Shown here in pieces: positions 38,071-56,111 of a stretch of DNA of 64,000 bases; position 1 is the stretch's first letter; the number at the start of each line of letters is the position of its first letter. Made by a program: the position numbers and the translations under genes. The stretch is taken from sequence record OK040907; one strand, written 5' to 3'. Origin of the DNA: Enterobacteria phage Ac3. Below the pieces are notes generated by a model, which was not told where the DNA came from, searched no databases, and was given only the letters and a program-made list of their open reading frames with translations.

Positions 38071-38120
38071 TTAATATCCTCTTTGTTTTGGTTTATTTTA
38101 CCAAAAATTTATAAAGCAAT

Positions 38121-38140
38121 ATAGGAGCCGAAGCTCCTAT
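38121..38140 (-). terminator. hairpin with UUCG tetraloop
   Basis: plus ataggagc-cgaa-gctcctat. Confidence 0.45.
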
Positions 38141-38310
38141 CCACATAATACGCCATACAGAGGCTCATTAGAACTTTTAAATTTTATACGCTTATATGTT
38201 ATAGTTCCTTCTGCTTTAGCTTTATCATGAGACTCTTTAAAGCGTCTCATCATTTCCTCTTTAGAGGAACGAATTTTATTATAATCTATTTCAGAAGTCT
38301 GGATGTTCAT
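38137..38310 (-). CDS. small hypothetical protein
   Basis: 57-aa ORF below track cutoff. Confidence 0.35.
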   Translation of the reverse strand: MNIQTSEIDYNKIRSSKEEMMRRFKESHDKAKAEGTITYKRIKFKSSNEPLYGVLCG

Positions 38311-38313
38311 CTT

Positions 38314-38520
38314 TCATAACTGCCACCATTTTTTGACTTGATAAGAATCAACCCACACTTTCATATTAGGGTCTGCTCTTACAATAGGAGGATTAACTTC
38401 TTTAATTGAACTATCATGGTATTCTTTTTCAGAAATTTTCACACAAAGATGACCATTCAAAGATTCAGTAAATCCTGCATTAATTTTAAGACGCTTGAAT
38501 TTTACGTGTGTAAGCATCAA
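38314..38520 (-). CDS. small hypothetical protein
   Basis: 68-aa ORF. Confidence 0.4.
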   Translation of the reverse strand: MMLTHVKFKRLKINAGFTESLNGHLCVKISEKEYHDSSIKEVNPPIVRADPNMKVWVDSYQVKKWWQL

Positions 38521-38803
38521 TCATATCCTCAATCTGCGATCTAGTAGTCTTCCAAAGAATACTGATAAGTTCATCGTTATATGGCTGTTTTAGAATATCC
38601 CGACTTTTCTTGATAGCATATTCGTATTGAGCAAAATTATTATTTTCAGCCGCAATCTGAGCATGCTTATAAAGACGATTCAGTTCGCGTTTGTTTTTAG
38701 ACAATAACTTATTTGCTTTTCTTTCTGCTTCAAGACGGTTCTTTTCTTCAATAGAAGAAATAAGCTTTTCCACTTCATCATTAATTTCGGGTTTATCAGT
38801 CAT
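38486..38803 (-). CDS. hypothetical protein
   Basis: 105-aa ORF. Confidence 0.5.
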   Translation of the reverse strand: MTDKPEINDEVEKLISSIEEKNRLEAERKANKLLSKNKRELNRLYKHAQIAAENNNFAQYEYAIKKSRDILKQPYNDELISILWKTTRSQIEDMIDAYTRKIQAS

Positions 38804-38804
38804 A

Positions 38805-39023
38805 TTATTTCTCTAATATAAAATAAAAATCATCATCTGTTAAATGATACCGATAGTTTAATTCTACACCATTAGATTTAAAAGCGGTATCATACGGATT
38901 TTCTGGATCAATATCAATGTCAAGAGCTAAAACTTCCCTGAGATACATTTTAAGTAAATAGGGAATAGCTTCAACTTCAGGTATTTCTTCCAAGAATCCG
39001 GAGAGGTTAATCGTTAGCCTCAT
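38805..39023 (-). CDS. small hypothetical protein
   Basis: 72-aa ORF. Confidence 0.45.
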
Positions 39024-39570
39024 ATAAAAAATCCAAACTAGGAGAATCGTCTACAACACTTTTCTTTTCAGCCCCCGGTGTTCTATAGGTTGATTCTTCG
39101 TAATGCGTCATTTTATCATAGATGTCTTGAATAAAAGTTTCATCTACTAACGCAACCATATCGTCGTCACGACTGTCATAGACATTGTGAACGAAGTAAC
39201 TATATTTCTTTGCAACTTCCTTACGTTCTTTTTTAATACGTTGGACGAATGCATTAAAACAAGCTTGAGTTATATACGCATGTGGGTTTTTATATTTCGT
39301 TTCATCAAAATTGTGAAGCCCCTTAATAGAAGCTTCTATACCATCTGCAATCATTTCTTGTTTCCAAGACTGGGTGTATCCTGAAAAGTTGAAACGTTTA
39401 GATAAGCCTTCTGCAATAAGCATAATGGCTAATCCGATAGTATCATTCTGACGAACTACTTTATTTGGGTCTTTATTATTTGCTAATTCTGTTTTCCAAT
39501 CAATAATAGCTTGTAAAAGCTCTTTATTGTTTACGTAATTATATTTAGGCTTAGTTTCTGACATTTTCAC
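39007..39570 (-). CDS. 55: late-transcription sigma factor
   Basis: 187-aa [29 protein letters not shown]; sigma region-2-like. Confidence 0.85.
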
Positions 39571-39642
39571 CTCTTAGCTCAATTCATAGATCTATTATAT
39601 CATAATATTTGAAGATCTATCTTAAAGCATAGAGGATATCAG

Positions 39643-39912
39643 TTATCTAAGTAAACAGTATGCTTGGAACACTTTCTCCATCATCTTTTTAAATTCATGA
39701 ATATCTATGTAATGACTAGTTAGTTCAGCATGATATAAAAAGTCTAAAAACTTTTCATGTGTACTAACATATTCACTTTCATTTAATTCAGAAACATGGC
39801 TTTCCCAGTATCCAACACCAGTCTTATTTGGGAAAAATGAAATTTTCATGTATTGGTCAACATAGAAAATGCCATAATTTTCAATAGTAATAGAAATATT
39901 AATAAATTTCAT
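39643..39912 (-). CDS. hypothetical protein
   Basis: 89-aa ORF. Confidence 0.45.
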   Translation of the reverse strand: MKFINISITIENYGIFYVDQYMKISFFPNKTGVGYWESHVSELNESEYVSTHEKFLDFLYHAELTSHYIDIHEFKKMMEKVFQAYCLLR

Positions 39913-40124
39913 ACATTCATCAACTTAGCCGCTTCAAGAGCTGCATCTAGTGAATCAAATTGGTCAACGTATTCAATCAATTCGCCGTAATTGGCATATA
40001 ACCACCATTGGCTAAATTCATACTCAAGGATGAATCCATTTCCTTCAATTTGAGTTAAACCATTGCCGTTTGTATTTACTTCATATCCGGCAAGACGCAA
40101 ATCGTTAATAAGAGCTTCGTTCAT
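39909..40124 (-). CDS. small hypothetical protein
   Basis: 71-aa ORF. Confidence 0.45.
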   Translation of the reverse strand: MNEALINDLRLAGYEVNTNGNGLTQIEGNGFILEYEFSQWWLYANYGELIEYVDQFDSLDAALEAAKLMNV

Positions 40125-40126
40125 AA

Positions 40127-40453
40127 TTATACCTTAGTAATTTTCAGGTCTGCAAATTTTTTCTTGCGTTGATTTTTCATGCGACGAATAGTTTTATCGG
40201 AAATTTCATGCTTTTGATAAGCTTTAGATTCTACACCAAAAGCTTTAACATCAAATTCTGACAAGATATATTGAACCAACAATTCACGGACAGTATTGCG
40301 TCCAATTTTCTGATCATTCTGTTTCATCGTCTGATGAAGTTCTTTTTCCCATTTATCCAAAATTTGAGGAGTTACAATATCGCCTTTTTCTAGCAAAGAA
40401 ACTACTTTATCATATGCATAAGAATTAATGACGTTTTTAATCTGAATAGTCAT
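40127..40453 (-). CDS. hypothetical protein
   Basis: 108-aa ORF. Confidence 0.5.
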   Translation of the reverse strand: MTIQIKNVINSYAYDKVVSLLEKGDIVTPQILDKWEKELHQTMKQNDQKIGRNTVRELLVQYILSEFDVKAFGVESKAYQKHEISDKTIRRMKNQRKKKFADLKITKV

Positions 40454-40490
40454 ACATTATCCTCAATTACGTTAAAATTTTATTATCCAA

Positions 40491-40506
40491 AAAGGGCCGA
40501 AGCCCT
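40491..40506 (-). terminator. hairpin with UUCG tetraloop
   Basis: plus aagggc-cgaa-gccctt. Confidence 0.45.
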
Positions 40507-40706
40507 TAGCTAAACTTTTTGGCACCCTTCCAGCCTTCATACATCATTGCGGCTGATATTAATATTGCTCCTGAGCAACTTGAATATTTGTGATTCCAAA
40601 ACCAGTTTAGAAAAACTTCGTCATCAATACCTTGGGCTATCATATTTTCAAAGAACTGACGACGAGCTTCGGCAATTCGCTGCGATAATTTAGATTCAGG
40701 ATTCAT
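40506..40706 (-). CDS. small hypothetical protein
   Basis: 66-aa ORF. Confidence 0.45.
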   Translation of the reverse strand: MNPESKLSQRIAEARRQFFENMIAQGIDDEVFLNWFWNHKYSSCSGAILISAAMMYEGWKGAKKFS

Positions 40707-40838
40707 TTAAATTTCCCAATTGCCATTTTCATCAATAAATTTAATCCAGTCATTTACTGACCACTTAGTTGTATCGCCTTTTGGAGTAACATTTAAAGTG
40801 TATAACCCCTGCTTAAAAAGCATTCGTTTAATATTCAT
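40707..40838 (-). CDS. small hypothetical protein
   Basis: 43 aa from internal Met MNIKRMLF with GAGGA RBS; the longer ORF would overlap the upstream gene. Confidence 0.4.
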   Translation of the reverse strand: MNIKRMLFKQGLYTLNVTPKGDTTKWSVNDWIKFIDENGNWEI

Positions 40839-40845
40839 ATTTTCC

Positions 40846-41139
40846 TCAGCTGTAACGATAACATTCGTTTGATTTGCGCTTAGCAACTCGTTGAGATGTA
40901 TTATAATCAAAATCATCGTCAATGTAAACTGATTTTTTCAACTTTCTTACTTCACCACGCAGTTGACGATTCAATTCATTCTTAACCTCTGAATCAACAC
41001 CTCGCATACGTCGCCATTTATCTGAACGAAAAATGTTTTCAACCATATCTTTATGACTTACCCCATCAGGAGCTTTACGCTTTCCGAAATAGTCATAATC
41101 ACGAACTTTCAAGTCTTTACGACGATACGTTTTACCCAT
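40846..41139 (-). CDS. hypothetical basic protein
   Basis: 97 aa from Met MGKTYRRKDLK with AAGGA RBS. Confidence 0.45.
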   Translation of the reverse strand: MGKTYRRKDLKVRDYDYFGKRKAPDGVSHKDMVENIFRSDKWRRMRGVDSEVKNELNRQLRGEVRKLKKSVYIDDDFDYNTSQRVAKRKSNECYRYS

Positions 41140-41314
41140 GGAGTTTAATTTCCTTAGCAACTGAACTAAATACAGCACGATCACAAATCATGTGTTTATG
41201 TAACTTAAGTATAAGATAATAAACATCATAACCATTTACGTAAGTAACACGAACAACATTACCATTAATAAAATAATATTGTCCCTTTTTAATTTCTTTA
41301 TCAATCATAACCAT
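41132..41314 (-). CDS. small hypothetical protein
   Basis: 60-aa ORF downstream of promoter 41345-41374. Confidence 0.45.
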   Translation of the reverse strand: MVMIDKEIKKGQYYFINGNVVRVTYVNGYDVYYLILKLHKHMICDRAVFSSVAKEIKLHG

Positions 41315-41344
41315 ATCAATTCCTCAAAGGCAATTCATGTGTTA

Positions 41345-41374
41345 ATAATACCACAGTTTGAGCTTGTTGTAAAC
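41345..41374 (-). promoter_or_regulatory. early promoter (GTTTAC - 18 nt - TATTAT)
   Basis: plus ataata 41345-41350, gtaaac 41369-41374. Confidence 0.5.
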
Positions 41375-41454
41375 AACTTTGTGAAAATTATTTTAGGGAA
41401 TGATAAGAAGGGAACGATAGCTTAGAATGGTAATATACAGAATGTGAGAAAGAA

Positions 41455-41469
41455 AGGCCCAGAGGGCCC
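41455..41469 (-). terminator. short GC hairpin
   Basis: plus ggccc-aga-gggcc. Confidence 0.35.
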
Positions 41470-41472
41470 GTC

Positions 41473-41796
41473 TTAGTCTTCTATGATATCTCTATCATAT
41501 CCAAGTGAAATGAGAGTTTCTTTGAAGTGTTTAATGTTCTTTTGTCTAGAATCATTAATGAAAATGACTGGATAACGAATGTTAAGAGATGTGAATCCAG
41601 CGCGTTTAGCAAGAGATACAATCAGTGGGCGATCATACTCAATCTTACCATTATTTGTAAGAACTTTATAGAAAGTAAAAGGAGCATTAAGCTCCTTTAG
41701 AAGTTTTGTAACTGATTGACATCCAGGACAACGACCTACTTCATCTGGAATTCCATAGACTTCAATCTTATTCTTTAAGTTCGAGTTTTGTTCCAC
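41473..41796 (-). CDS. glutaredoxin-like protein (NrdH-like), start uncertain (possible GTG)
   Basis: CPGC redox motif; the annotated long ORF overlaps the upstream gene so real start is likely internal. Confidence 0.45.
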   Translation of the reverse strand: MEQNSNLKNKIEVYGIPDEVGRCPGCQSVTKLLKELNAPFTFYKVLTNNGKIEYDRPLIVSLAKRAGFTSLNIRYPVIFINDSRQKNIKHFKETLISLGYDRDIIED

Positions 41797-42079
41797 GAGA
41801 AATAATTCCTTGGTAAGCCCAATAAGGAGGATTAACAGAATCCTCACCAGAGTTTTCTTCAGGAAAATAAACCTGGATAACGAAGCCGGATTCATCAAAG
41901 GTGAAATAAGTAGTAGGCAGTTCACCTAACAAATCGGCACGAGCGTTGATTTCTTCGAGGTCTTGTTCACGTCCAGCCCAGAAGCTTGGGTTCAGACTAC
42001 ATTCATAGAAATAATAGTCATTACCGAACATATCAAAACCATTCCAACTCTCTACTACATACCGCTCAAAACTAATCAT
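41768..42079 (-). CDS. hypothetical protein
   Basis: 103-aa ORF. Confidence 0.5.
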   Translation of the reverse strand: MISFERYVVESWNGFDMFGNDYYFYECSLNPSFWAGREQDLEEINARADLLGELPTTYFTFDESGFVIQVYFPEENSGEDSVNPPYWAYQGIISRGTKLELKE

Positions 42080-42081
42080 AA

Positions 42082-42297
42082 TTAAGCCTTTTTATCAAGA
42101 ACAGCATTCAGCTTGTTAGTAATTTTATCCAGACGCTTATTGAACTCACTAGAAGATAAGCCCTTTTCTGGAGAAATTAAACTAATCACGAAAAATATAG
42201 CAATAAAAGGAATAAGGAAAATAGCTCCAACTGCCATAAACAGAAAGAATGTTACAGTTGTAAGAAAATCAGCTAAACCTTTACGAAATTTATACAT
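42082..42297 (-). CDS. small membrane protein
   Basis: 71-aa ORF with one long hydrophobic helix. Confidence 0.5.
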   Translation of the reverse strand: MYKFRKGLADFLTTVTFFLFMAVGAIFLIPFIAIFFVISLISPEKGLSSSEFNKRLDKITNKLNAVLDKKA

Positions 42298-42306
42298 ATT
42301 TTACCC

Positions 42307-42420
42307 TTAATTGATTAACCAAGCATTGATAAGCACTAAACTATATTGCGAATAAAATTCTGGACCAAAATGAAAAATCATATCATTTATAGTATCCATA
42401 ATGTAATTCAATTTAATCAT
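42307..42420 (-). CDS. small hypothetical peptide
   Basis: 37 aa from Met MIKLNYIMD, start 2 nt after nrdG stop. Confidence 0.3.
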   Translation of the reverse strand: MIKLNYIMDTINDMIFHFGPEFYSQYSLVLINAWLIN

Positions 42421-42883
42421 GTGTCCACACCCCATCGGTATTTGACCAAAGTCGCTGATTATCTGATCCTCGCCACAGCTTTTTGGTCGGAAGATTTTTC
42501 TCATACTTCCCATCAATAATAACATCAACATATTTAAGCATTTCTAGTTGTTTAATATCTTCAAACTTATATCCTGTCCACAACCAAATGCTTTTATTGG
42601 GATAAAGATTTTTAATAGTTTGAACCACAGAGTGAATCACGTCTCTGTTATCAGGATAAAGAGGGTCACCTCCGGTTATAGTTAATCCTTCTATATAATC
42701 ATTATTCAAACATTCAATCAATTGTTCTAGTGTTTCACCAGTGAATGGAATACCATTTCTAGCATTCCATGTTGATTTATTATAACACCCTTCGCATTTA
42801 TGCAAACAACCTGTAACGAAAAGAACGACCCTGCATCCAGGGCCATTCACAAAATCACAGGGATAAAATCTATCGTAATTCAT
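42413..42883 (-). CDS. nrdG: anaerobic ribonucleotide reductase activating protein (radical SAM)
   Basis: 156-aa ORF with CLHKCEGC cluster motif; matches T4 NrdG length. Confidence 0.85.
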   Translation of the reverse strand: MNYDRFYPCDFVNGPGCRVVLFVTGCLHKCEGCYNKSTWNARNGIPFTGETLEQLIECLNNDYIEGLTITGGDPLYPDNRDVIHSVVQTIKNLYPNKSIWLWTGYKFEDIKQLEMLKYVDVIIDGKYEKNLPTKKLWRGSDNQRLWSNTDGVWTHD

Positions 42884-44697
42884 TGGTGTTTAACCCTATG
42901 CATGATTTCTTTATTTTTACCGAGATTAAATCCGCGCTCGTTCGGATTTCCCAAATAACCACATGTTCTTCTTATTGTGTTCATCTTTTTAGGATCAGTT
43001 TCTCCACAAATAGAACAAACAAATCCGTTTTCAGTAGGAGTCATTTCATGGGTACTTCCACATGTAAAACATTTATCTACTGGCATATTAACACCAAAAT
43101 AATCTAAATGTTGTGCGGCATAATCCCATACAGCCTCAAGACCTTTTAAGTTATTTTTCATATCAGGAAGTTCAACATAAGAAATGTGACCACCTGTCGC
43201 AATGAAATGATATGGCGCTTCACGAGAAATCTTTTCAAACGGAGTAACATTTTCTTCTACTGAAACGTGGAAACTGTTAGTGTACCAGCCTTTATCAGTA
43301 ACATCCTTTACACTTCCATATTTTTCTGTATCAAGTTTACAGAAGCGATAGCAAAGGTTTTCAGCAGGAGTAGAATACAAACTAAAAGCAAACCCAGTTC
43401 TTTCAGTCCACTGTTTAAGATGAGCATTCATTTTAGTTAAAATTTCTTGTCCAATATCACGACCGATAAGAATATTCAATTCGTGAATACCAATGTATCC
43501 TAAAGACACTGAACTTCTACCGTTTTTAAATAACTCAATTATATCGTCATCGGGTTTAAGACGAACCCCGAATGCACCTTCTTGGTAAAGAATAGGAGCA
43601 ACAGTAGCTTTAACTCCTTTTAAGGAACTAATTCTACACATCAAAGCTTCAAAACATAAATCCATTCGTTCATTGAACAATTCGATAAATTTCTGTTCAT
43701 TGAGCTGTGTTCCAATATAAGAATCTAATGCGATACGAGGAAGATTCAGTGTTACAACACCGAGATTATTACGTCCATCAAGAATTTCATTGCCAGTCGA
43801 ATCTTTCCATACGCTCAAGAAACTACGACAACCCATTGGAGAAACAGGAACAGATGAACCAGTGATAGCTTTATTGTTCTTAGCTGAAATAATATCAGGA
43901 TACATCCTTTTGCTTGCACACTCTAAAGCAAGCTGCTTAATATCATAGTTCGGATCGTCTTTATAAAGATTAACACCTTCTTCAACAAACATAACAAGCT
44001 TAGGGAAAATAGGAGTTATCCCATCACGACCAAGACCTTTAATACGATTTTTCAGAATTGCTTTCTGAATCATTCGTTCAGTCCAGTCAGTTCCTGTACC
44101 AAATGTAATTGTTACAAAAGGTGTTTGTCCGTTTGAACTAAAGAGAGTATTTACTTCATATTCATAAGCTTGGAATGCATCGTATACATCTTTTTCTGTT
44201 TTAGATTGAGCATAATTTAACGCATCAGCGATTTGCCATTTTTCTGCATCCTCAATATGTTTTGCATAGGTGCGTTTAACATAAGGAGAAAGTACTTTAT
44301 CTACATTAGCAAAAGTCGTTCCGCCGTATTGATGGGAAGCAACCTGTGCAGTAATTTGTGCCATAATTGCAGTAGCAACACCGATTGATTTAGGAGTTTC
44401 AATCTGTGCATTACCAAGCTTAAATCCGTTCTCAAGCATTCCTTTTAAATCTACTAAACAACAATTAGTAAATGGAAGAGCAGGGGAATAATCAATATCA
44501 TGGAAATGAATAATTCCGCTTTCATGCGCTTTCATAATAAAAGACGGGACCATATTTTTGGCAATGTGTTTAGACACAATACCAGCCATAAGGTCCCGTT
44601 GAGTTGGAAAAACACGAGAATCTTTATTAGCATTCTCGTTTAAAAGGTCTTTATTAGTTTTATGAATCAATCCTTCAATTTCTTTTTCAATTGTCAT
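42880..44697 (-). CDS. nrdD: anaerobic ribonucleoside-triphosphate reductase, intron-less
   Basis: 605-aa continuous ORF; C-terminal glycyl-radical motif and Zn-ribbon CFTCGSTHEM...CSICG. Confidence 0.9.
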   Translation of the reverse strand: MTIEKEIEGLIHKTNKDLLNENANKDSRVFPTQRDLMAGIVSKHIAKNMVPSFIMKAHESGIIHFHDIDYSPALPFTNCCLVDLKGMLENGFKLGNAQIETPKSIGVATAIMAQITAQVASHQYGGTTFANVDKVLSPYVKRTYAKHIEDAEKWQIADALNYAQSKTEKDVYDAFQAYEYEVNTLFSSNGQTPFVTITFGTGTDWTERMIQKAILKNRIKGLGRDGITPIFPKLVMFVEEGVNLYKDDPNYDIKQLALECASKRMYPDIISAKNNKAITGSSVPVSPMGCRSFLSVWKDSTGNEILDGRNNLGVVTLNLPRIALDSYIGTQLNEQKFIELFNERMDLCFEALMCRISSLKGVKATVAPILYQEGAFGVRLKPDDDIIELFKNGRSSVSLGYIGIHELNILIGRDIGQEILTKMNAHLKQWTERTGFAFSLYSTPAENLCYRFCKLDTEKYGSVKDVTDKGWYTNSFHVSVEENVTPFEKISREAPYHFIATGGHISYVELPDMKNNLKGLEAVWDYAAQHLDYFGVNMPVDKCFTCGSTHEMTPTENGFVCSICGETDPKKMNTIRRTCGYLGNPNERGFNLGKNKEIMHRVKHQ

Positions 44698-45167
44698 TTT
44701 AAACTCTTTCTAAGCTGCTTCTTAAATGAAGCTATTAATTGTGTTTTAGTGTCAGATTCATTATATTCAAATCCTCTTTGAAGCATCTCAGCCATCATTT
44801 CCTCTTTTCCTAAACGAGAAAATTCCTTTGATTTATCTCCAACAAAGTTAGGGTGAATATTATTTTGGGTGTAATCGGATTTTAAATAAGTAAGTAAATT
44901 TTCTAACCATTCAAGATAATCAACACCCTGTCCCTTTAAGCCAGAACGATTAAATTTATGCTTCATTTGACCTTCTGCGGCATTGCAGAGATTACAAAGC
45001 AATCCACGTACCTTTCCTGCTTTTGGTCCATTTAATTCATGGTCATGATCAAGATGATTAGCTTGAACATCAGGATTTAGTTCTCGTTGGCAAATTAAAC
45101 ATTTACCATTTTGTGCATCATAAAATTTCTGTTTTTCTTCTTTATATAATTTGCCAGTCAATAACAT
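44694..45167 (-). CDS. 49: endonuclease VII (Holliday junction resolvase)
   Basis: 157-aa ORF MLLTGKLYKEEKQKFYDAQNGKCLICQRELN... Confidence 0.9.
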   Translation of the reverse strand: MLLTGKLYKEEKQKFYDAQNGKCLICQRELNPDVQANHLDHDHELNGPKAGKVRGLLCNLCNAAEGQMKHKFNRSGLKGQGVDYLEWLENLLTYLKSDYTQNNIHPNFVGDKSKEFSRLGKEEMMAEMLQRGFEYNESDTKTQLIASFKKQLRKSLK

Positions 45168-45208
45168 AATAAACCCTTACCTTAAATAGATAAGGGTATT
45201 TATTATTT

Positions 45209-45694
45209 TCAAGTATTGTAAAACATTTGATTCAATCGCTTATATTGCCGAATCTTTTGGTCAGAAAAAGAAATTTGGGTTTCAAGCCATTCAATATATT
45301 CTGCCGCAGCTTGCATCAAATTTCCTTCATAGCCATCGTTATTTTCTTGTGCAGCTAATTTAGCTAATGCGTATGAAATACGTTCACCTTGAAAATCAGC
45401 TTTAGGCTTCTGAACAACTTGATTAGTTCTCTCTACAACTTCTTCAATTTCGCCATTTTCTACTGATTCAGTATTCCACAAGCACCAATACGTAATTGGC
45501 TTATCGTAGATGTTAATAATCTTTCCATCAGAAAGTTCAATTTCAATAATTCCAGTATCAGGCTCTATATCATCTTCACATTCTTTTGCAAGTTCACGAA
45601 CTTTAAAGACAGTACCTGCACTAAGTTCCGGCCAGTAATTACACAGCCCTATATCAGCACGATTAATTCTAAACCACTTATCTACTGTAATCAT
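45209..45694 (-). CDS. hypothetical protein, possibly Pin (protease inhibitor)
   Basis: 161 aa from Met MITVDKW; positional and size-based guess only. Confidence 0.4.
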   Translation of the reverse strand: MITVDKWFRINRADIGLCNYWPELSAGTVFKVRELAKECEDDIEPDTGIIEIELSDGKIINIYDKPITYWCLWNTESVENGEIEEVVERTNQVVQKPKADFQGERISYALAKLAAQENNDGYEGNLMQAAAEYIEWLETQISFSDQKIRQYKRLNQMFYNT

Positions 45695-45817
45695 GTCCCA
45701 TCTCCATATCAATTAAGTCATTTATCGTCGGTTCATTATATATTGTTTCTTCATCAGTGTAAACCGGTTCTTCCGGCTCTGGCTCTACAGTTTCCCATCT
45801 AGCCGCCCACCAAGGTT

Positions 45818-46138
45818 TTATAGCGTAATCCATTCTCGTACTGTCTGAGTTACTACACGTTCATGGGGCTCGACTAGTTCAACAGTCGGAACTGCATAAT
45901 ACCAGTCAGAATGATAAGAACCTGACCGAGATTCATTTACCGCTACATGTACATTATGTTTTGGACTAAAGTAAACACACTGACGATATTGACATTTACC
46001 ATCTTGCACCCAGTCTTCTATTTCGACAGGTTTAAGATAATCGGAAAAATCGAAATCATAGTTTTCCGAAAATGCATCATGGTCTTCAATGATTTCGCTC
46101 AGAACTGCATCAACATCTAATTTATTTTCAATAGTCAT
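45818..46138 (-). CDS. hypothetical protein
   Basis: 106-aa ORF. Confidence 0.5.
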   Translation of the reverse strand: MTIENKLDVDAVLSEIIEDHDAFSENYDFDFSDYLKPVEIEDWVQDGKCQYRQCVYFSPKHNVHVAVNESRSGSYHSDWYYAVPTVELVEPHERVVTQTVREWITL

Positions 46139-46148
46139 TTTTCACCAA

Positions 46149-46319
46149 TTAGTTGCGCAGCTTATTCAGTTCCTCGTCATCGATCCAAGACTCCAGACCG
46201 GACGGCAGAGCACATTCGATCTCCCACAGGAGTTCCTCAATTTTCTGCAGGCGATCCAGTTCCTCAGCCGGGATGGTCACCATGGACGGTGCACGGCTTA
46301 CGTTAATGTCATAGATCAT
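46149..46319 (-). CDS. small acidic protein with E. coli-optimised-looking codon usage
   Basis: 56-aa ORF below track cutoff (MIYDINVSRAPSMVTIPAEELDRLQKIEELLWEIECALPSGLESWIDDEELNKLRN); GC-rich island bounded by native genes. Confidence 0.5.
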   Translation of the reverse strand: MIYDINVSRAPSMVTIPAEELDRLQKIEELLWEIECALPSGLESWIDDEELNKLRN

Positions 46320-46321
46320 AT

Positions 46322-46537
46322 TTACCCCAATTTAACCATACAATCGCCGTATTTCCACTTAGAAATAGACTTTTCACCATTAGAATAATAAACTTCGAGT
46401 TTAGCACGATTATTTTTAATTTGAATAACCTTGGCTGTCATCAAAGTTCCATACCCATAATAAACTGCAACTTCATCACCTACATATACCGCGCTTCCGC
46501 GGTAATCATGAATATAGTCAGTTCCTTCGAGCATCAT
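46322..46537 (-). CDS. small hypothetical protein
   Basis: 71-aa ORF. Confidence 0.5.
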   Translation of the reverse strand: MMLEGTDYIHDYRGSAVYVGDEVAVYYGYGTLMTAKVIQIKNNRAKLEVYYSNGEKSISKWKYGDCMVKLG

Positions 46538-46797
46538 TTAAAATATTCTCGCAGTTGGTCAAATCCACCAATATGACTTCCATCAGGAGCAAATACCTGG
46601 GGCATTGTCAAGCCGATTTGAGTATCACGACCTAGTTTAGTCAGAAGCTCAGCGATTTTCTCATCATCAAAAACACCTTTTTCCGGCATAATGTTGATAA
46701 ATTCAAACGGCTGTTTCTTCACGGTCAAAAGACGTTTTGCATTATCGCAATACACACATTTATGAATGTTGCTATCATAACCATATACTTTAAACAT
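46534..46797 (-). CDS. nrdC: glutaredoxin/thioredoxin
   Basis: 87-aa ORF with CVYC active site; matches T4 NrdC. Confidence 0.85.
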   Translation of the reverse strand: MFKVYGYDSNIHKCVYCDNAKRLLTVKKQPFEFINIMPEKGVFDDEKIAELLTKLGRDTQIGLTMPQVFAPDGSHIGGFDQLREYFK

Positions 46798-46798
46798 A

Positions 46799-47041
46799 TT
46801 ATTCCTTAATTCCTAGTACTTGTTTAAAAGTCTCGTCGTAATCAAGACTTTGGCCTGTTTGTTCTTTATGTTTGTATATAATATCACTTACTTCTGATAG
46901 CATATTTTTATATGAACGAGTTAAAGCAGATTTAAGTACGCTGTACCTATCAGGAAATTTACCATGTTCATTATAATAAGCTATTGCTAATTCACGGACT
47001 GCCTTTTCAGCAGCCTCCATATATTCTTTACGCTTGGTCAT
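46799..47041 (-). CDS. small hypothetical protein
   Basis: 80-aa ORF. Confidence 0.5.
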
Positions 47042-47043
47042 TT

Positions 47044-47433
47044 TTAATCCAAAATATTATTAGGCATTGGTTGAACACTCACAAGTTCTTTAAAGAACTC
47101 AGTAGAGTCAGGCAATTTAACCATTTCCGGAGCATGCTTACTGAATTTATGTTTACATTGACGGCATTTATATTCAAGCTCTGGTTTACGCCAGTTAATC
47201 AATTGAACTTGTTCAGTACCGCATTCAGGGCAATTAGGAACGTTTTTAGAAGCTCTTTCACGTCGTTCAACCATAGCCATAATAGCATCCCATGCTGGAG
47301 GTTTAAAATCTAAATCGTCGCAGCCGTGAATCTTTCCACGCATTTCCAAATCGTCTTCTTCACCAGCCATAATAATTTTAATTAGACTAGAATTACTTGA
47401 AGCTGCAATGTCTTCTAATAAACGCTTTTTCAT
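47044..47433 (-). CDS. zinc-finger protein
   Basis: 129-aa ORF with CPECG...CRQCKH. Confidence 0.5.
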
Positions 47434-48356
47434 TTCAATACCTCAATAGCATTACGTAAACCATTTGCTTTGGCGGTTAAAGCCTTAAGAACTTTAGTAT
47501 GCTCTTCAATCTGTTTTTCAACTTCAATCAAACGGGCACTGAGATATTCGCGTTCTTCTTTCATAGTATCATTTCCATGATTGGATTTTGGTGTAGGTTT
47601 AAATTCACTAGGGTCCTTTAATTTAATAACAAATTTAGTTTCAAACAGTGAAAGACCATAATTCGTATTATCATCAAAGGATTTGACTACATCCATATCA
47701 GATAATAACACGCGCAAATTATAAGCCAAAGAACTAATAGTTTCATTGTGTTTATTAGCTTCGCGTGGTTTCATATACGGAAGATTTTTATATATCTCAT
47801 GCGGAGCGCAAACGATAATTGACAATTCAAATTGTCCATTCTGGGACGATGGAGTGAATTTAGCCGTAACCCAGTCTTTTACATTCACATTAATAGTACG
47901 GTTATCACCATGACAAAACAGTCTACGAGAATGCTTAAAAAGCATATTCACGTTATTATTGAATTCGTGTGAAAATTCACTAGCAAATTTTTCTTTACTA
48001 TCTTTAGAAAACCATTCTTCTAAATAAGTTCTTTTCACGTCGTTAATAATATTAAATGTAACAACACTAGCATTTGATACATTAGTCTCAATGTAGCTTG
48101 GATACATAAATTTTTTAATATTATTAACAGCTATCACAGAAGATAGTAATCGGGAACGTTTGAACCACTCGAGCAAAGAACCAAGAGAATGTGAATACGC
48201 ATTTTGTGTATCTTTACAAATATGGTTTTCCCATCCAATATAGTCTAAAAAATCACGAAGAATATTATTGATTACTTCTCTATGTCCTTTCTGATAATCA
48301 CGATGTTTAGTAATAAGACTGTCAAAATAATCAATATAATGTTTACGAGTTTTCAT
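47430..48356 (-). CDS. hypothetical protein with C-terminal coiled coil (array member 1)
   Basis: 308 aa; one of four adjacent 300-340-aa ORFs each ending in a coiled-coil tail. Confidence 0.55.
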   Translation of the reverse strand: MKTRKHYIDYFDSLITKHRDYQKGHREVINNILRDFLDYIGWENHICKDTQNAYSHSLGSLLEWFKRSRLLSSVIAVNNIKKFMYPSYIETNVSNASVVTFNIINDVKRTYLEEWFSKDSKEKFASEFSHEFNNNVNMLFKHSRRLFCHGDNRTINVNVKDWVTAKFTPSSQNGQFELSIIVCAPHEIYKNLPYMKPREANKHNETISSLAYNLRVLLSDMDVVKSFDDNTNYGLSLFETKFVIKLKDPSEFKPTPKSNHGNDTMKEEREYLSARLIEVEKQIEEHTKVLKALTAKANGLRNAIEVLK

Positions 48357-48389
48357 GTTCTTCTCACTTGGTTAATGATTTATACTCCG

Positions 48390-48403
48390 AGCCATCCTTG
48401 GCT
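48390..48403 (-). terminator. hairpin
   Basis: plus agcca-tcct-tggct. Confidence 0.35.
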
Positions 48404-48410
48404 TTAAATT

Positions 48411-49412
48411 TTACTTAATTAACTGTAAAGCTTGTTCCAGACGATCAAGACGATTAACAGATTCTTCCCAAATCCTTTTAGCCTGCTCATATTCTTTCTG
48501 TGCTTTATTAGAAATTTCTAGAACTTCTTTATAAGCTTTTTCTAGTGCAATAACTTCTGGACGAATTTCTATCGGTTCAGGTGAATCATCAAGATTATCC
48601 ATTAGTTCCTCAAGGGTAGTTTCTTCTTTAGGAGTATTCACAATTTCATCACATTTTTGTTGATAAATTTCTTTATCAGTAGGTGAGTACGCGCACTTTA
48701 CTTCACGAAGACTAATTACAATTTTATATCCTTCCCAACCACCCATATTTTTGAAAGGATATGTATGAATACTTTTTACAGTTTCCATACAATCCAAAGC
48801 CGTCTCTAATTGATGAGTTATAGTGCTAGCAATTGAGAAAAATTTATTAATATTCTTTTGGTTAGCTTCTGGTGTAAAAAATTCGTAATTCACAAAAATA
48901 GCTACTTTATTTTTATCAAGCTCATATTCTTTTACGATAATCATATCAGAAGCCAAAGGATGAATTTGACGATAATCGCCATAACATAATTTAGAAGCTG
49001 ATTTTAGAATTTGTCCTTTAAAAAGTCTGAAATTGCTAATCCAACGACGAGTAAAAATATTCTTAGGGTCTTCTTTGATATTAAGATGATAAGAATTAAC
49101 ATCACCGAACCAATTGTATCCTATTACACCTTTAGTTCGTTTAATTTCTTTCCCAAAATTACCAAGAATATCCCGATTAACCAAATATGAAAGAAGACGA
49201 GACCCTTTAAAGATTATCTTAATATCATCTTTATCTACACGGCTAGAAATTTCACGAACTTCATGAATAAATTTACTGGAAGAAACAATACTTGCATCAA
49301 TACTGCTGAGCCATTGATTGATAATAGAAAGAACAGCGTTCTGACTAGACATGGGTTTAACTTTATCATCAATAACACTATTGAATGATTTGATATATTC
49401 GTTACGAGTCAT
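48411..49412 (-). CDS. hypothetical protein with C-terminal coiled coil (array member 2)
   Basis: 333 aa from Met MTRNEYIKSF with GAGGAG RBS; the longer ORF start lies inside promoter 49441-49470. Confidence 0.55.
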   Translation of the reverse strand: MTRNEYIKSFNSVIDDKVKPMSSQNAVLSIINQWLSSIDASIVSSSKFIHEVREISSRVDKDDIKIIFKGSRLLSYLVNRDILGNFGKEIKRTKGVIGYNWFGDVNSYHLNIKEDPKNIFTRRWISNFRLFKGQILKSASKLCYGDYRQIHPLASDMIIVKEYELDKNKVAIFVNYEFFTPEANQKNINKFFSIASTITHQLETALDCMETVKSIHTYPFKNMGGWEGYKIVISLREVKCAYSPTDKEIYQQKCDEIVNTPKEETTLEELMDNLDDSPEPIEIRPEVIALEKAYKEVLEISNKAQKEYEQAKRIWEESVNRLDRLEQALQLIK

Positions 49413-49440
49413 AATAATCTCCTCAGTAGAAAGTAAGAAC

Positions 49441-49470
49441 ATTATACCACATCCTTGTGGTAAAGTAAAC
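49441..49470 (-). promoter_or_regulatory. early promoter (GTTTAC - 18 nt - TATAAT), 32-nt identical copy of the one at 2418-2449
   Basis: plus attataccacatccttgtggtaaagtaaac. Confidence 0.6.
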
Positions 49471-50495
49471 TAGTTCAGTGCATTTAATGCATTGTTCAGT
49501 TTAGAACGTTGCTTCGTGAGATTTTTGACTTTTTCTTGTGCTTTTTCTAGCATCTTTTCAGCTTCTAACACTTCATTGGTCGCTTTAACGAGTTCATCAT
49601 CTACTGCCTTGATAGACTTCTCAATCGCATCCGCGTGCCATTTTTCAACAGGTTTAAGACTCGGATTTTCAATAGGAAGAAAATTCACTTTATTGAATTT
49701 CCATGCATCCTTATTACCTGAACTATACATCCAAAATTTAGGATCGTTTGATGAGTAATTGGATAAATTTAAATTTAAGTTATCTTGCACTTCCTGCTTC
49801 TTCTCTTGCGTGACTTCGTCCTTTCTCAAAAAATCATATTTAAATGAAACAATCATATCAAGTTCATATGTTGTTGTGTCTAATTTAAATCGTTCGAAAT
49901 GCTGTGAAATCTTAGACCGAACAGCGGCAACAACATCCATATACTTAAATGCTTCTGTCAACTGTGATTTAAGGCATTCACAAATTGAAAGAGAATTTTT
50001 TGTATTAGGTTTAAAGCTAATTCGTGCAGTTCTATTATTTTCTTTTAATGGTCTTACTTCCATCTGAAGAGTATAACCATCAAATTTCAAGTTCTTTAAG
50101 TTAATATCAGAACCTTTTAATCGACTAGCAGTTGATAAAATTTGCTTTAATTGTCTACGGAACAGAGCAATAAATCTCCATTCAATACGATAATGATTTG
50201 GATTGAAAAATCCAGATGATAAATCGACCTTACTCTGACCAACACCTTGAACAAATAGAGGATTTTTATAATCAATAGTTTTACAGAAATCGGTGAGCTG
50301 CTCACGAGCAGTCATTTGTGTAATATATCCCGCTTTACTAAAATGACGTAACCATTCACTGCTATTCATATACTTAAAGTGAATGGAACTATTAACTCTA
50401 TCAGGGTCTAAATTATTTTGGCACAAAAATGTCATAACATCACGAGTATAGCTGGCATTACGAACCATATCTTCAATTTGAGAACGAGTTTTCAT
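49470..50495 (-). CDS. hypothetical protein with C-terminal coiled coil (array member 3)
   Basis: 341-aa ORF. Confidence 0.55.
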   Translation of the reverse strand: MKTRSQIEDMVRNASYTRDVMTFLCQNNLDPDRVNSSIHFKYMNSSEWLRHFSKAGYITQMTAREQLTDFCKTIDYKNPLFVQGVGQSKVDLSSGFFNPNHYRIEWRFIALFRRQLKQILSTASRLKGSDINLKNLKFDGYTLQMEVRPLKENNRTARISFKPNTKNSLSICECLKSQLTEAFKYMDVVAAVRSKISQHFERFKLDTTTYELDMIVSFKYDFLRKDEVTQEKKQEVQDNLNLNLSNYSSNDPKFWMYSSGNKDAWKFNKVNFLPIENPSLKPVEKWHADAIEKSIKAVDDELVKATNEVLEAEKMLEKAQEKVKNLTKQRSKLNNALNALN

Positions 50496-50503
50496 AGTGT
50501 TCC

Positions 50504-51409
50504 TTAAGATTTAAGTAAATCAACAATTTTAATTAATTTTTCACGCTCAGATTTAGCTTTATTACTCAATCCAGATAGTCTGAAAATTTCATCGTCATAC
50601 TGTTGAATAGAAATATTCAGCTCTTCAATTTGCTTATTAAAATAATCAATTTGCTCAGAATGTTTTTCGTTACTACGAACTGGTACAGGGTTTGTAGGCA
50701 ATTTAGTTAAACTGGATTCATCCGGGCGATAAATTAAAATGCAATTTGAACCAATCGGGCATTTAGCACCAGATGAATATTCTAACGTTCCAGCTTCTTT
50801 TAAAACTTCAAAAGCTAAACAGAGATGATGCCCCATATTAACATAATCTGTAGAGTGAGCTCTGACGTAATAATCATCTCCACGAGTACTAAATTTAAAG
50901 CATTTAAGGTCTTCTGTATTATTAGTTTTAAAAATCATTTGTTTATCTAGACCTTTAGCCAATCGAGCACCTAATGCTAATAATCGTCGTTGATTTTCCC
51001 ACAAATCCGCAATCATTTGATCGAATGACAATTTCGGCATTAGTCGACCATAAAGGTCATATCCTTTATTATAATTGCGAAGAATTTCACTCGCGTTAAT
51101 GCGAGACAATGCTCCAATTTTATTAAGGGCTTTCATGATGCGATTAGATAAACTCATTCCAGACCCATTTGTTCGCTGTAAATGTTTTTCTAATCCAAAC
51201 CCAATATCAACTTTAAATTTATCTAAAATTTCAGCATGAACATCTCTGTCAATAACATTCAAATCCAAAGTTGGGTTAAATCTATGAAAAAATTTATCTG
51301 GCTCTCCACGACGAAATACAGTCCATTCATTCATCATTTTTTTATTAACTAAAGATTTAATTACTGCATTGACATTATTAATTACTACTGACATATTTTT
51401 CTCACTCAA
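50504..51409 (-). CDS. hypothetical protein with C-terminal coiled coil (array member 4)
   Basis: 301-aa ORF. Confidence 0.55.
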   Translation of the reverse strand: MSEKNMSVVINNVNAVIKSLVNKKMMNEWTVFRRGEPDKFFHRFNPTLDLNVIDRDVHAEILDKFKVDIGFGLEKHLQRTNGSGMSLSNRIMKALNKIGALSRINASEILRNYNKGYDLYGRLMPKLSFDQMIADLWENQRRLLALGARLAKGLDKQMIFKTNNTEDLKCFKFSTRGDDYYVRAHSTDYVNMGHHLCLAFEVLKEAGTLEYSSGAKCPIGSNCILIYRPDESSLTKLPTNPVPVRSNEKHSEQIDYFNKQIEELNISIQQYDDEIFRLSGLSNKAKSEREKLIKIVDLLKS

Positions 51410-51810
51410 TTTTCAATTTTACTAAATACACAGAATATGATGGAAAAGACTATATAAGCACCGCACACAGATTGAACTAATACCATTCCAAAGAACCAAA
51501 TAATATTATCAAACAGTGTCTGTTTTACGTCGAAAGGACGTAAACTTACAGTAATATTATCACCTTTTTCTATTGAAGAATACATCTCTGGTGAAATATA
51601 TTCACTAAATCTATAACCGTCTTTGAGTTCATATACAGCAATAAACGATAAACTAGACCCCTTTCCTTGAGTTCCTGTAAGGGTATTAACTACAGTAACA
51701 TCATAATCTTTATAATGCATATAATCATTAATTGCGTAATAACCATATGCAACTACTACACATAAACAACATATCAATAAATTCAATCTTTTAATTATCA
51801 ACTGTTTCAT
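51406..51810 (-). CDS. membrane protein
   Basis: 134-aa ORF with N- and C-terminal hydrophobic helices. Confidence 0.5.
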   Translation of the reverse strand: MKQLIIKRLNLLICCLCVVVAYGYYAINDYMHYKDYDVTVVNTLTGTQGKGSSLSFIAVYELKDGYRFSEYISPEMYSSIEKGDNITVSLRPFDVKQTLFDNIIWFFGMVLVQSVCGAYIVFSIIFCVFSKIEN

Positions 51811-51840
51811 AATAATCTCAATTAAAAGGGCTTAGAACCA

Positions 51841-51860
51841 TTATACCATCCTTGGTATAA
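51841..51860 (-). terminator. hairpin (8-bp stem)
   Basis: plus ttatacca-tcct-tggtataa. Confidence 0.4.
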
Positions 51861-51865
51861 AGCGG

Positions 51866-52393
51866 TTATGCGAGTACCGTCTTTAACCGTTCTTCAAACT
51901 TCCGAAGAGTATTCTGGCGTTCAGCTCTTTGCTTTTTGTAAGTTTCAATACGCTCTGAAATGAGATTGTATCGTTCATTTACTGTTTCTTTCATAAAATC
52001 AGGAATTTCACGAGAAGCTTTAATCTCGTCAAATTTATCAATAACAGCTTGCTCTTCAGCAATTAAGTTATCATACATCAAAATATCTTTCTTGATGAAC
52101 TCAATATCTTCTTGAGTTACACGAGATAACTTAGATGCTTTATCCTTTTTGTACTGTTCGTTAGTATCACGAGACCAGTGTAATGTACGATTTTTATTCG
52201 TATTCTTGTAAATTTCTACAATACCAATCTCATCGATAATAACGATCCAATTCCAACGGGATTTGTAAATTTGTCCTCCATCAACAGTGATTTCACCACC
52301 GATTGAGACATCATTAAAGAACTTGCTTTGAGCTTCAGATTTAAATTTACCATCATTGTAGTTTACCAAGTTGAAAATATCTTTAGCATTCAT
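51866..52393 (-). CDS. hypothetical protein
   Basis: 175-aa ORF with GGAGG RBS and conserved leader. Confidence 0.5.
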   Translation of the reverse strand: MNAKDIFNLVNYNDGKFKSEAQSKFFNDVSIGGEITVDGGQIYKSRWNWIVIIDEIGIVEIYKNTNKNRTLHWSRDTNEQYKKDKASKLSRVTQEDIEFIKKDILMYDNLIAEEQAVIDKFDEIKASREIPDFMKETVNERYNLISERIETYKKQRAERQNTLRKFEERLKTVLA

Positions 52394-52421
52394 TTTCTGT
52401 TCCTCCGTAGTTGATAGTTGT

Positions 52422-52451
52422 ATAGTATCACAGAGGAACAGTCTTGTAAAC
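52422..52451 (-). promoter_or_regulatory. early promoter (GTTTAC - 18 nt - TACTAT) with conserved leader
   Basis: plus atagta 52422-52427, gtaaac 52446-52451. Confidence 0.55.
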
Positions 52452-52453
52452 CA

Positions 52454-52768
52454 CTAAAAGAAACTTCTTTCACAATTTTTTCCACTGAACCACGCGCTCA
52501 CTGCTTTCTTAGTCTCAGGAGCAGTGTTATCCATAAACCATTCAAAGGCAGCCTTTTTATGATTCTGGAGGGCTTCTCGGGCTTTAATCTGCTCACGGTC
52601 TATTAACACTAACATATGAGCCTTTCTTGTCACCAGGGGCTTCTTATGATTTTTTGAATATTCCCAATCATTTGTCCATCGCATTGTTGTTGCGAACTGA
52701 AATACTGCTTCTTTAATTTTAGTTTCATAAATTTCACGAGCCTTTGAGTATAACATCATTACCTCCAT
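52454..52768 (-). CDS. hypothetical protein
   Basis: 104-aa ORF. Confidence 0.45.
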   Translation of the reverse strand: MEVMMLYSKAREIYETKIKEAVFQFATTMRWTNDWEYSKNHKKPLVTRKAHMLVLIDREQIKAREALQNHKKAAFEWFMDNTAPETKKAVSAWFSGKNCERSFF

Positions 52769-52838
52769 TTACCAGTTTAATTCTAGTCATCTTTTTGATG
52801 GCAGTCCATATAATCTATTTCTGAACTGCCTTTTTGTC

Positions 52839-53558
52839 TTAGGATTCTTCTAAATGTCTTTTCTGAAAAGTTGATACCATACTACGATACGGTTCATTTG
52901 GATATCCGTGTTTTATAGCTTCCTTTGTAAATTTTCTCCATCCATATTTAGTTTCTTTCCAAAGCTCGAATAATTCATCTTCATATTGCCATATAGTTAA
53001 ATGAGAACGCTTTGCAGCTTTAATTCCATTAATATGCTTTTCTTTTACTACAGGATTGCTTAGTTTCTTTTTAATAATATTACTAACTTTTCTAACAAAA
53101 ACTGGGTCCTTATATCGTTGCGAAGTTTTTATTGAAGTGTTTAATTTAGCTTCCGGCGTGGATGTGACCTCTTTCATCTTTTTCTTCATATGCTGTATAT
53201 GATTAGGATTTTTCCATAAATTTATAGAATGCTTTTTGCATTTTATCCTAGTTTCATCTGCAACCTTTCCTCCTTCACCCCCGTATGACAGGTTAACACA
53301 GTTTTTTCCATATTTCAATTTACCTGCCATGATATATAATATTTCAGCTTGTACCATTTTATCATAATTATCAAAAACTTCTAAAACCGTTTTTGATAAT
53401 ATGTGGTCATTTGACACTTTTACACGTTCTATATAATTTCCACTACCAACATACGAATCATTGATGTTATTAGTTATATGTCGACCATAATAGTATTTCT
53501 TAATACCTGTCTTTAAATTTAATATTTCAGTTTTATAGATAGTAAAATATTTTTTCAT
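52839..53558 (-). CDS. putative GIY-YIG (Seg-like) homing endonuclease
   Basis: 239-aa ORF with N-terminal YYYGRH...SYVGSG motif and basic C-terminal half. Confidence 0.5.
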   Translation of the reverse strand: MKKYFTIYKTEILNLKTGIKKYYYGRHITNNINDSYVGSGNYIERVKVSNDHILSKTVLEVFDNYDKMVQAEILYIMAGKLKYGKNCVNLSYGGEGGKVADETRIKCKKHSINLWKNPNHIQHMKKKMKEVTSTPEAKLNTSIKTSQRYKDPVFVRKVSNIIKKKLSNPVVKEKHINGIKAAKRSHLTIWQYEDELFELWKETKYGWRKFTKEAIKHGYPNEPYRSMVSTFQKRHLEES

Positions 53559-54523
53559 TTTAATAATACCGTTTCAGCGATTTCTTCCCAACCGTTTTTG
53601 TCGGTCATAATAAAGTCAGCAAGATAAAGTGCAGTACGCAGTGAAACATTACGTAAACGATTAACATTGACTTTCATCCATGATAATGCTTTATAAGTTT
53701 CTTCATCAGAAAGACCGCGCTTTTGCATCATGTCGGTTGAAAGAATAACATCTTCAACCCTGACCATAATTTCTTCATTAGTGTGAACACCCAAATCCAA
53801 ATAAACTGAGCGGGACACTAATGCTTGTAAATGTGGAGCAAGTTTAGTACCACGGTCTAATTCGCGGTCAATGTCAACGTTTGTGATAAAAACAATCGTT
53901 CCTTTAAATTCAAACTCACGCTCAATGCCTTTTTCTTCTAAGTAAGAAGATGCGGTGCTCCAGCAGACTTTACGGGTCTCTCCAGTGTCCAGAGCAGCTT
54001 TCAGAAGATTAAGAATGTCCATATCAGAGAAAACATCCACATCATCAATCAAAAGGACAGAATTCTCTTCACGATTATTCCAAAGCTGTTCATAAAGACC
54101 AATACCAGAGATTTTACCATTAATGCTTTTATACTCAATGTATCCAATATCATTTGCTTTATTTAAAGCTTTATCTAAAGAATACGTTTTACCAATACCT
54201 GCTGCTCCCGAGATAATTAATGAACGAATGTTTCCGTTAATAATACCATTCGTCATCATTCCCATAACATTAAATCTTTTATTAATGCGGGTTTTCATAT
54301 CTTCATACGATTCTTTAACTTCTTCAACTTTTACACCATCATATGAAATGTCTGATTTGTAAACCCAAACACCGCGACGCTTACCGTCAATTTCAACAAA
54401 AACTTTACCATCTCCTTGTGCATCTACCGGAGCATTATCTGGGAACCATTCGCCTAAGAGCTCAAAAGTTCCAGAGATTTCTTTACCGAAGTAGATACCC
54501 TTATTGATAGTTACAGTTTTCAT
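53555..54523 (-). CDS. P-loop NTPase
   Basis: 322 aa from Met MKTVTINKG; Walker A GAAGIGKT and Walker B LLIDDVD. Confidence 0.55.
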   Translation of the reverse strand: MKTVTINKGIYFGKEISGTFELLGEWFPDNAPVDAQGDGKVFVEIDGKRRGVWVYKSDISYDGVKVEEVKESYEDMKTRINKRFNVMGMMTNGIINGNIRSLIISGAAGIGKTYSLDKALNKANDIGYIEYKSINGKISGIGLYEQLWNNREENSVLLIDDVDVFSDMDILNLLKAALDTGETRKVCWSTASSYLEEKGIEREFEFKGTIVFITNVDIDRELDRGTKLAPHLQALVSRSVYLDLGVHTNEEIMVRVEDVILSTDMMQKRGLSDEETYKALSWMKVNVNRLRNVSLRTALYLADFIMTDKNGWEEIAETVLLK

Positions 54524-54557
54524 TTTATTCTCCAAATCTGTATCAGTTGATAGTTGT

Positions 54558-54587: not shown

Positions 54588-54616
54588 AACTTTGTGAAAA
54601 ATTTTTGAAATAAAAA

Positions 54617-54636: not shown

Positions 54637-54637
54637 A

Positions 54638-56109: not shown

Positions 56110-56111
56110 AA

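Follow-up and report, generated by a model that had tools for sequence, protein, structure and literature searches.

Is the short, GC-rich reading frame that lies on the minus strand at 46149..46319 of the window (the whole 64,000-nucleotide stretch of DNA analysed here) a true gene, and if it is, why does its composition stand so far apart from that of its surroundings, and what might its product do? The original prediction had proposed a recoded gene for an acidic protein of 56 residues, hidden between two native genes. The reading frame is indeed present on the minus strand, and its translation matches the residues quoted in that prediction exactly. In the ORF list it starts with ATG at 46319..46317 and ends with TAA at 46151..46149. 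Across the interval the list gives a single ORF that reaches 60 aa, and it is on the other strand, a frame of 99 aa at 46089..46388 (+). The explanation that we hold with high confidence is that the minus-strand frame is the phage gene RB51ORF088 and that its DNA has been artificially rewritten with synonymous codons; that its product would function as a binder is a much weaker proposal.

Identity and setting of the gene

The full 64 kb of the window is collinear with positions 1..64000 of phage RB51, with zero indels and 1,614 differences. A megablast search with 45700..46800 retrieved, at matching coordinates, RB51 (NC_012635.1 / FJ839693.1) and RB68, with an identity of only 96.5%. At 46149..46319 on the minus strand, the RB51 record (NC_012635.1) annotates RB51ORF088 (gene RB32ORF081c, protein YP_002854041.1), and the 56-aa product of the window is 100% identical to this protein, with the same coordinates and strand. 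The phrog_3402 profile matches the protein from end to end (E 2.7e-40; residues 1-56 on profile positions 1-56 of 56). RB51ORF088, RB32ORF081c and RB69ORF091c thus form one family, phrog_3402, which has sister groups in phrog_6250, 11244 and 14445; the RB51 record itself notes that RB51ORF088 is 'similar to RB69ORF091c', while RefSeq calls its product 'antitoxin from a toxin-antitoxin system'. By sequence comparison, then, and with the dN/dS of the family as described below, the ORF is shown to be RB51ORF088 (phrog_3402) of coliphage RB51, which is a real gene, accessory and conserved among the T4-like phages. The gene had been called hidden, and this is correct insofar as the 60-aa cutoff of the ORF listing missed it. 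It is not correct in the wider sense, since the gene is already annotated in RB51 and in hundreds of relatives; it is a known gene and no hidden discovery.

The genes of the region are ordered nrdC, RB32ORF082c, the 56-aa ORF, 49.2, 49.1, pin and 49, and every gene around the 56-aa ORF is carried on the minus strand. The upstream neighbour, RB32ORF082c (46322..46537, minus strand), encodes 71 aa and belongs to phrog_2112 by RB51 annotation and PHROG match; its stop codon TAA occupies 46324..46322. The downstream neighbour, 49.2 (45818..46138, minus strand), encodes 106 aa of the Pfam Phage_T4_Y04K family by RB51 annotation and Pfam match, and its ATG is at 46138. Both are unchanged with respect to RB51, in agreement with the predicted position between two native genes. 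RefSeq names the 106-aa 49.2 protein 'ribonucleotide reductase' (phrog_2294); its homologues in distant relatives match only Phage_T4_Y04K. The names 'ribonucleotide reductase' for 49.2 and 'antitoxin' for the 56-aa ORF look like uncritical PHROG transfers, and neither found support in our searches.

The genes are closely packed, with gaps of 2 nt from the RB32ORF082c stop to the ORF and 10 nt from the ORF to the start of 49.2. A Shine-Dalgarno-like GGGG (46325..46328, minus strand) is found 5 nt upstream of the ATG and within the 3' end of RB32ORF082c, where the minus strand reads AAATTGGGGTAAAT directly before the ATG. The same layout of GGGG before ATG is seen in three relatives (L006, L008 and L009). 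On the downstream side, the 10-nt spacer TTGGTGAAAA (46139..46148, minus strand) carries the ribosome-binding site of 49.2 and is identical to that of RB51; the minus strand across it reads TAATTGGTGAAAAATG. The regulatory parts at RB51ORF088, namely the upstream GGGG, the ATG, the TAA and the spacer with the 49.2 ribosome-binding site, are therefore all native. A scan of 45.0-47.5 kb found no consensus for a sigma-70-like promoter or an intrinsic terminator within the 56-aa ORF, and an Rfam scan of the same interval gave no meaningful match.

Synonymous recoding and the antisense frame

The identity to RB51 is perfect at the level of protein and not at the level of DNA. When compared base by base with NC_012635.1, the span 46152..46314 (minus strand) contains 39 substitutions that alter 37 of the 56 sense codons (52 of the 56 are neither Met nor Trp), and all codons from ATG to stop were eligible for recoding. 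All 39 differences from RB51 within 44200..48300 fall inside the RB51ORF088 CDS, with no amino-acid change, and every base of the flanks (44200..46151 and 46315..48300) agrees with RB51. Between the recoded and the native gene, the Nei-Gojobori pS is approximately 0.97-0.98, the protein being identical. The substitutions raise the GC content of the gene from 36.8% to 52.0% and its GC3 from 0.21 to 0.66. Native RB51 windows of 171 nt have a mean GC of 34.2% (sd 4.1), which places the ORF at z = 4.3, and 52% is reached by no native RB51 window of that size in 64 kb. A 150-nt composition scan gives the same picture, with a sharp peak of 55% at the ORF against about 30-40% on both sides. The prediction of a GC-rich and recoded gene is thus borne out on both counts. 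The gene appears GC-rich because its DNA has been rewritten with synonymous codons preferred in E. coli. The high GC is man-made and no biological property of the gene, and it is common to roughly eleven other CDS in the window.

The plus-strand ORF of 99 aa has its origin in the same change. In native RB51 its frame is interrupted by five stops inside RB51ORF088; the recoding, with its raised third-position GC, eliminated all five, and the frame is open in the window for this reason. That this ORF is the true gene and the minus-strand frame its shadow has practically no chance of being correct. Its length, greater than that of any other ORF over the interval in the window, is outweighed by the five stops of native RB51, by the neighbouring genes, all of which are on the minus strand, and by conservation across genera, which belongs to the minus-strand protein. 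The original prediction had dismissed the 99-aa frame as a spurious shadow, and the native sequence refutes it as a gene.

RB51ORF088 is not the only gene affected. The 1,614 differences from RB51 are grouped in seven clusters over the 64 kb: 8943-9168 (dexA.1), 18284-18902 (61.2), 31966-35226 (the mobB-like homing endonuclease RB32ORF054w, gene 46 and a frameshifted endonuclease pseudogene), 46152-46314 (RB51ORF088), 49918 (a single SNP), 54639-56104 (nrdC.11 and RB32ORF096c) and 60085-60955 (RB32ORF111c, tk.3 and tk.4). About twelve CDS in seven blocks have been handled alike. Each gains 11-17 GC points, and their proteins are unchanged except for a few overlap artefacts. When the recoded CDS are pooled, CTG accounts for 88% of Leu, Gly is encoded only by GGT and GGC, and Arg essentially only by CGT and CGC. 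Fifteen rare codons (ATA, CTA, CTT, TTA, TTG, AGA, AGG, CGA, GGA, GGG, AGT, TCA, TCG, ACA and CCC) have zero uses in about 1,900 recoded codons, and all of them are present in the native versions. This is the codon usage of highly expressed E. coli genes; that the rare codons are missing was counted directly. The single difference at 49918 (T in RB51, C in the window) is of another kind: it lies outside the recoded blocks and is non-synonymous, changing Gln to Arg in nrdC.5. It may reflect natural variation, a discrepancy between records or a deliberately introduced change.

How did the rewritten DNA arise? Acquisition of the gene by recent horizontal transfer from a donor of higher GC would explain a 52% GC gene within a 34% GC genome, but it is refuted by the pattern of the changes, which comprises no non-synonymous and near-saturated synonymous differences between base-identical flanks. 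Moreover, natural copies of the gene have 32-44% GC, the codons used are those that optimisation software would select, and the same pattern recurs in six other blocks of the window. Nor was the recoded DNA found in the phage, viral, metagenome and genome collections searched: the best DNA identity to the recoded ORF among phage records is 77.2%, which is that of the native gene, and a 48-nt stretch of it had zero exact matches in IMG/VR, JGI metagenome contigs and GTDB genome contigs. We regard natural transfer as extremely improbable. A physically built derivative of RB51, carrying codon-optimised synthetic genes, deserves more thought, since the recoding of RB51ORF088 is clean and retains the spacers, the ATG and the stop. 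Elsewhere, however, the recoding has been destructive. The stop of 46.1 is changed from TGA to TTA (35225-35227); tk.3 has its ATG changed to GTA and its stop lost as well; and the start codons of RB32ORF111c and RB32ORF110c become GTA and ATA, respectively (these further overlap sites are at 60287-60290, 60497-60499 and 60085-60087). The segment 34360-35225, a gap without RefSeq CDS in RB51, contains a homing-endonuclease-like gene that is frameshifted and spread over two frames, and both halves have been recoded, which indicates that the recoding used an annotation in which the halves were listed as separate CDS. Neither the broken starts and stops nor the recoding of such a pseudogene would be expected from someone designing a phage to be viable. 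With no literature on a recoded RB51 found, and no matching public sequence in the collections searched, a physical construct seems very unlikely. Because gene overlaps were ignored and neighbouring starts and stops broken, we infer that the recoding is artificial, was applied CDS by CDS and is most probably computational, rather than a product of evolution or part of a viable engineered phage. The GC-rich islands of the window accordingly mark RB51 CDS that have been synonymously rewritten, and long antisense ORFs over recoded spans are likely artefacts of the rewriting, not to be taken as foreign or new genes.

Conservation and architecture of the family

The natural history of the gene is to be read from its homologues, which the original prediction had proposed to look for in the 49-nrdC interval. 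A tblastn search with the 56-aa protein found 853 phage records, 17 of which are at least 99% identical, including RB51, RB68, RB3, RB5-7, RB9 and RB10. A scan of IMG/VR with the family motifs yielded 23 loci, and all 23 are in the nrdC-49 interval and co-oriented with their neighbours. The neighbours vary, and include RB32ORF082c-like genes, 49.3-like genes, 49.2 and 49.1. Two distant members in Logan contigs are syntenic also. One of them (P0035, 49 aa) lies between the genes of the Phage_T4_Y04L (49.3) and Phage_T4_Y04K (49.2) families, followed by pin and endonuclease VII; the other (P0036) adjoins the same pin/endonuclease VII block. The median pairwise dN/dS among 24 distinct natural core sequences is 0.29. 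The homologue check thus returned a syntenic family under purifying selection, and the prediction of a coding gene was upheld.

The family is small: when 1.84 billion representatives were searched exhaustively with HMMER, only 9 clusters were obtained. Two of these (P0032 and P0037) are repetitive and were rejected as spurious matches. The genuine-looking clusters are short phage-type proteins, and the two that were traced to contigs have a T4-like context. From these sequence searches, the family appears to be confined to T4-like phages. It is not universal among them: phage T4 has no copy. The slot between 49.2 and nrdC is variable, being occupied in T4 by 49.3 only (NC_000866, 47823-48131), in RB51 by RB32ORF081c and RB32ORF082c without 49.3 (46149-46537), and in several other genera by 49.3 together with an ORF088-like gene.

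The conserved part of the protein is a core with the consensus V-x-I-x-x-E-E-L-x-R-L-x-x-I-E-E-L-L-W-E-[IV]-E-x-x-LPSGLESW-I-D-x-E-E-L-x-K-L-R. Its central motif, L-L-W-E-[IV]-E-x-x-LPSGLESW, corresponds to residues 30-45 of the 56-aa protein. Among 16 diverse members LPSGL is invariant, and the E-S-W that follows reaches a conservation of at least 90%. By contrast, residues 1-12 vary, and some annotations start at an internal Met13. The protein was predicted to be acidic, and so it is: with a mass of 6.5 kDa, it has 13 D/E against 5 K/R, a net charge of -8 and a pI of 4.15. An AF2 model of the monomer, which is of moderate confidence and built on a shallow alignment, has a mean pLDDT of 75, rising above 90 in the central helix. 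In the model the N-terminus, with V-T-I-P, is extended; residues 18-37 form a long amphipathic helix, and after a turn at LPSG there are two shorter helices (42-45 and 48-55). A Foldseek search with this model against PDB and BFVD found no annotated structural neighbour and returned only a fused member of the family. PDB searches with the single protein sequence and with the family profile gave only chance-level matches (GINS Psf1 and ferritin). Across Pfam, NCBIfam, PDB and Foldseek there was no significant match, in sequence or fold, to a characterised protein.

In some relatives the core is not a free-standing protein. A segment of 44 aa recurs at the C-terminal end of larger ORFs, behind any of three or four unrelated N-terminal domains. 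It follows a 49.3-like domain in one locus (L017, 2680-3141), the RB32ORF082c protein in another (L007, 2782-3171, in frame), an unrelated domain some 70 aa long in two more (L013 and L015, 2779-3135) and likewise in P0030, and yet another domain in P0036. The fusion to RB32ORF082c comes from one extra G, GGGGG instead of GGGG, just before the RB32ORF082c stop, and it may be a homopolymer sequencing error. The fusions may be a Rosetta-stone hint of a protein that works with 49.3 or RB32ORF082c.

Candidate functions and known systems

The antitoxin name under which the protein stands in RefSeq calls for scrutiny. It would make the protein the antitoxin of a phage toxin-antitoxin pair, or else a mimic able to neutralise a toxin of the host. 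The name is the label of phrog_3402, copied into RefSeq records, and one of the 16 family members gives a Pfam PhdYeFM_antitox match, at E 0.049. The V-x-I-x-x-E-E-[LY]-x-R-L segment presumably resembles the strand-helix junction of Phd/YefM. A Phd/YefM antitoxin is, on the other hand, about twice as long as the 56-aa protein. The protein itself has no significant Pfam or NCBIfam antitoxin match. A toxin-like partner is also missing in the loci examined: in 26 of 26 the neighbours are nrdC, RB32ORF082c, 49.3, 49.2, 49.1, pin or gene 49, and in the PHROG search the families matched by RB32ORF082c and 49.2 carry no toxin annotation. The HMMER search of 1.84 billion representatives turned up no bacterial TA loci or homologues, and a literature search for the ORF names and the sequence motifs found no paper naming either. 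The label is therefore rejected on the grounds of no significant antitoxin family match and no adjacent toxin gene in the loci examined, and an antitoxin role is, in our estimate, very improbable. The RefSeq name 'antitoxin from a toxin-antitoxin system' is without support and should not be propagated.

A more specific idea is that the protein resembles gp5.9 of phage T7, which is reported, along with its structure, as a DNA-mimic inhibitor of RecBCD (PMC9836394). By analogy, the 56-aa protein would form an acidic dimer, each chain having a beta-strand at its N-terminus and a coiled helix, and would plug the DNA-binding channel of RecBCD or of another host DNA-handling enzyme. The two proteins are much alike in size and charge: 56 and 52 aa, each with 13 acidic and 5 basic residues and a net charge of -8, and with pI 4.15 and 4.08. 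A V-T-I-P motif near the N-terminus is common to both. Profile searches gave two weak matches over about residues 12/13-31: Pfam PF25708 scored 20.4 bits (E 4.8e-4), and phrog_6234, annotated as 'host RecBCD nuclease inhibitor', gave E 7.5e-4. The weak PF25708 match recurred in 7 of 16 diverse family members. The score of 20.4 bits is, however, below the Pfam gathering threshold of 24.5, and only 19 of the 46 profile positions (4-22) are matched. When relatives of gp5.9 were gathered, and both families aligned and compared, hhalign returned a family-to-family probability of 0.9% (E 0.062, 15 columns), and pairwise BLASTP produced no alignment. The family profile retrieves no gp5.9 chains from PDB at E <= 10, and the defining LPSGLESW motif is absent from gp5.9. 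T4-like phages, moreover, already protect DNA ends with gp2. Membership in the gp5.9 family is rejected on the sub-threshold PF25708 score, the hhalign probability and the failure of BLASTP to align the two. A mode of action like that of gp5.9 has a low prior and, as an analogy, seems to us quite unlikely to apply. A paper on a screen of phage accessory genes (PMC12373910) makes no mention of nrdC or gp5.9.

Returning to the reading of the protein as a binder, a tentative proposal can be made from the model and the pattern of conservation. The 56-aa protein would be an early product, transcribed from the nrdC-49 unit on the minus strand along with its other early genes, and would act stoichiometrically as a protein-binding module, either an inhibitor or an adaptor. 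The invariant LPSGLESW turn, together with two Trp residues, would form the contact surface. A portable docking or oligomerisation module of this kind would fit the occurrence of the 44-aa core as a tail on unrelated domains. We consider such a stoichiometric module, using the LPSGLESW turn, to be possible and put it forward with reserve. In more general terms, the product may plausibly be an acidic, helical protein that binds or inhibits a partner. The original prediction had suggested an inhibitor of host enzymes or defence proteins; the idea was drawn from small size and acidity and names a plausible candidate function. A stronger version, namely that RB32ORF081c/phrog_3402 represents a class of T-even accessory inhibitors in which an acidic strand-helix-turn module, with invariant LPSGLESW as its contact motif, would block an enzyme of host DNA processing or defence, perhaps after the fashion of gp5.9, appears unlikely to us. 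If it were true, the class may have gone unstudied because T4 itself is without the gene. The family, being small, acidic, strongly conserved and absent from T4, makes a sensible though unremarkable candidate for anti-host or adaptor activity.

The comparison with known systems can be made at two levels. At the level of the protein, type II antitoxins of the Phd/YefM family (PF02604) share with it a short strand-helix motif, V-x-I-x-x-E-E-Y/L-x-x-L, and the RefSeq product name, but the match is below threshold and limited to 1 of 16 members, and neither an adjacent toxin, in the loci examined, nor a bacterial homologue, in the HMMER search, was found. T7 gp5.9 is likewise a small early phage protein, in which an N-terminal V-T-I-P segment is followed by a long helix. 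It differs, however, in lacking the LPSGLESW turn and the C-terminal helices, and it comes from a different phage family and genomic context. At the level of the DNA, the gene is like codon-optimised synthetic genes designed with E. coli class-II or high-expression tables: the changes are synonymous only, rare codons are excluded and Leu is dominated by CTG. Unlike such genes, the optimised CDS here keeps its native genomic place in an otherwise wild-type phage sequence. The closest comparison is with the RB51ORF088 family itself, with which it shares an identical protein, a full-length HMM match and the same synteny. From native RB51ORF088 it differs in DNA alone, by 39 synonymous substitutions and a GC content of 52% as against 37%.
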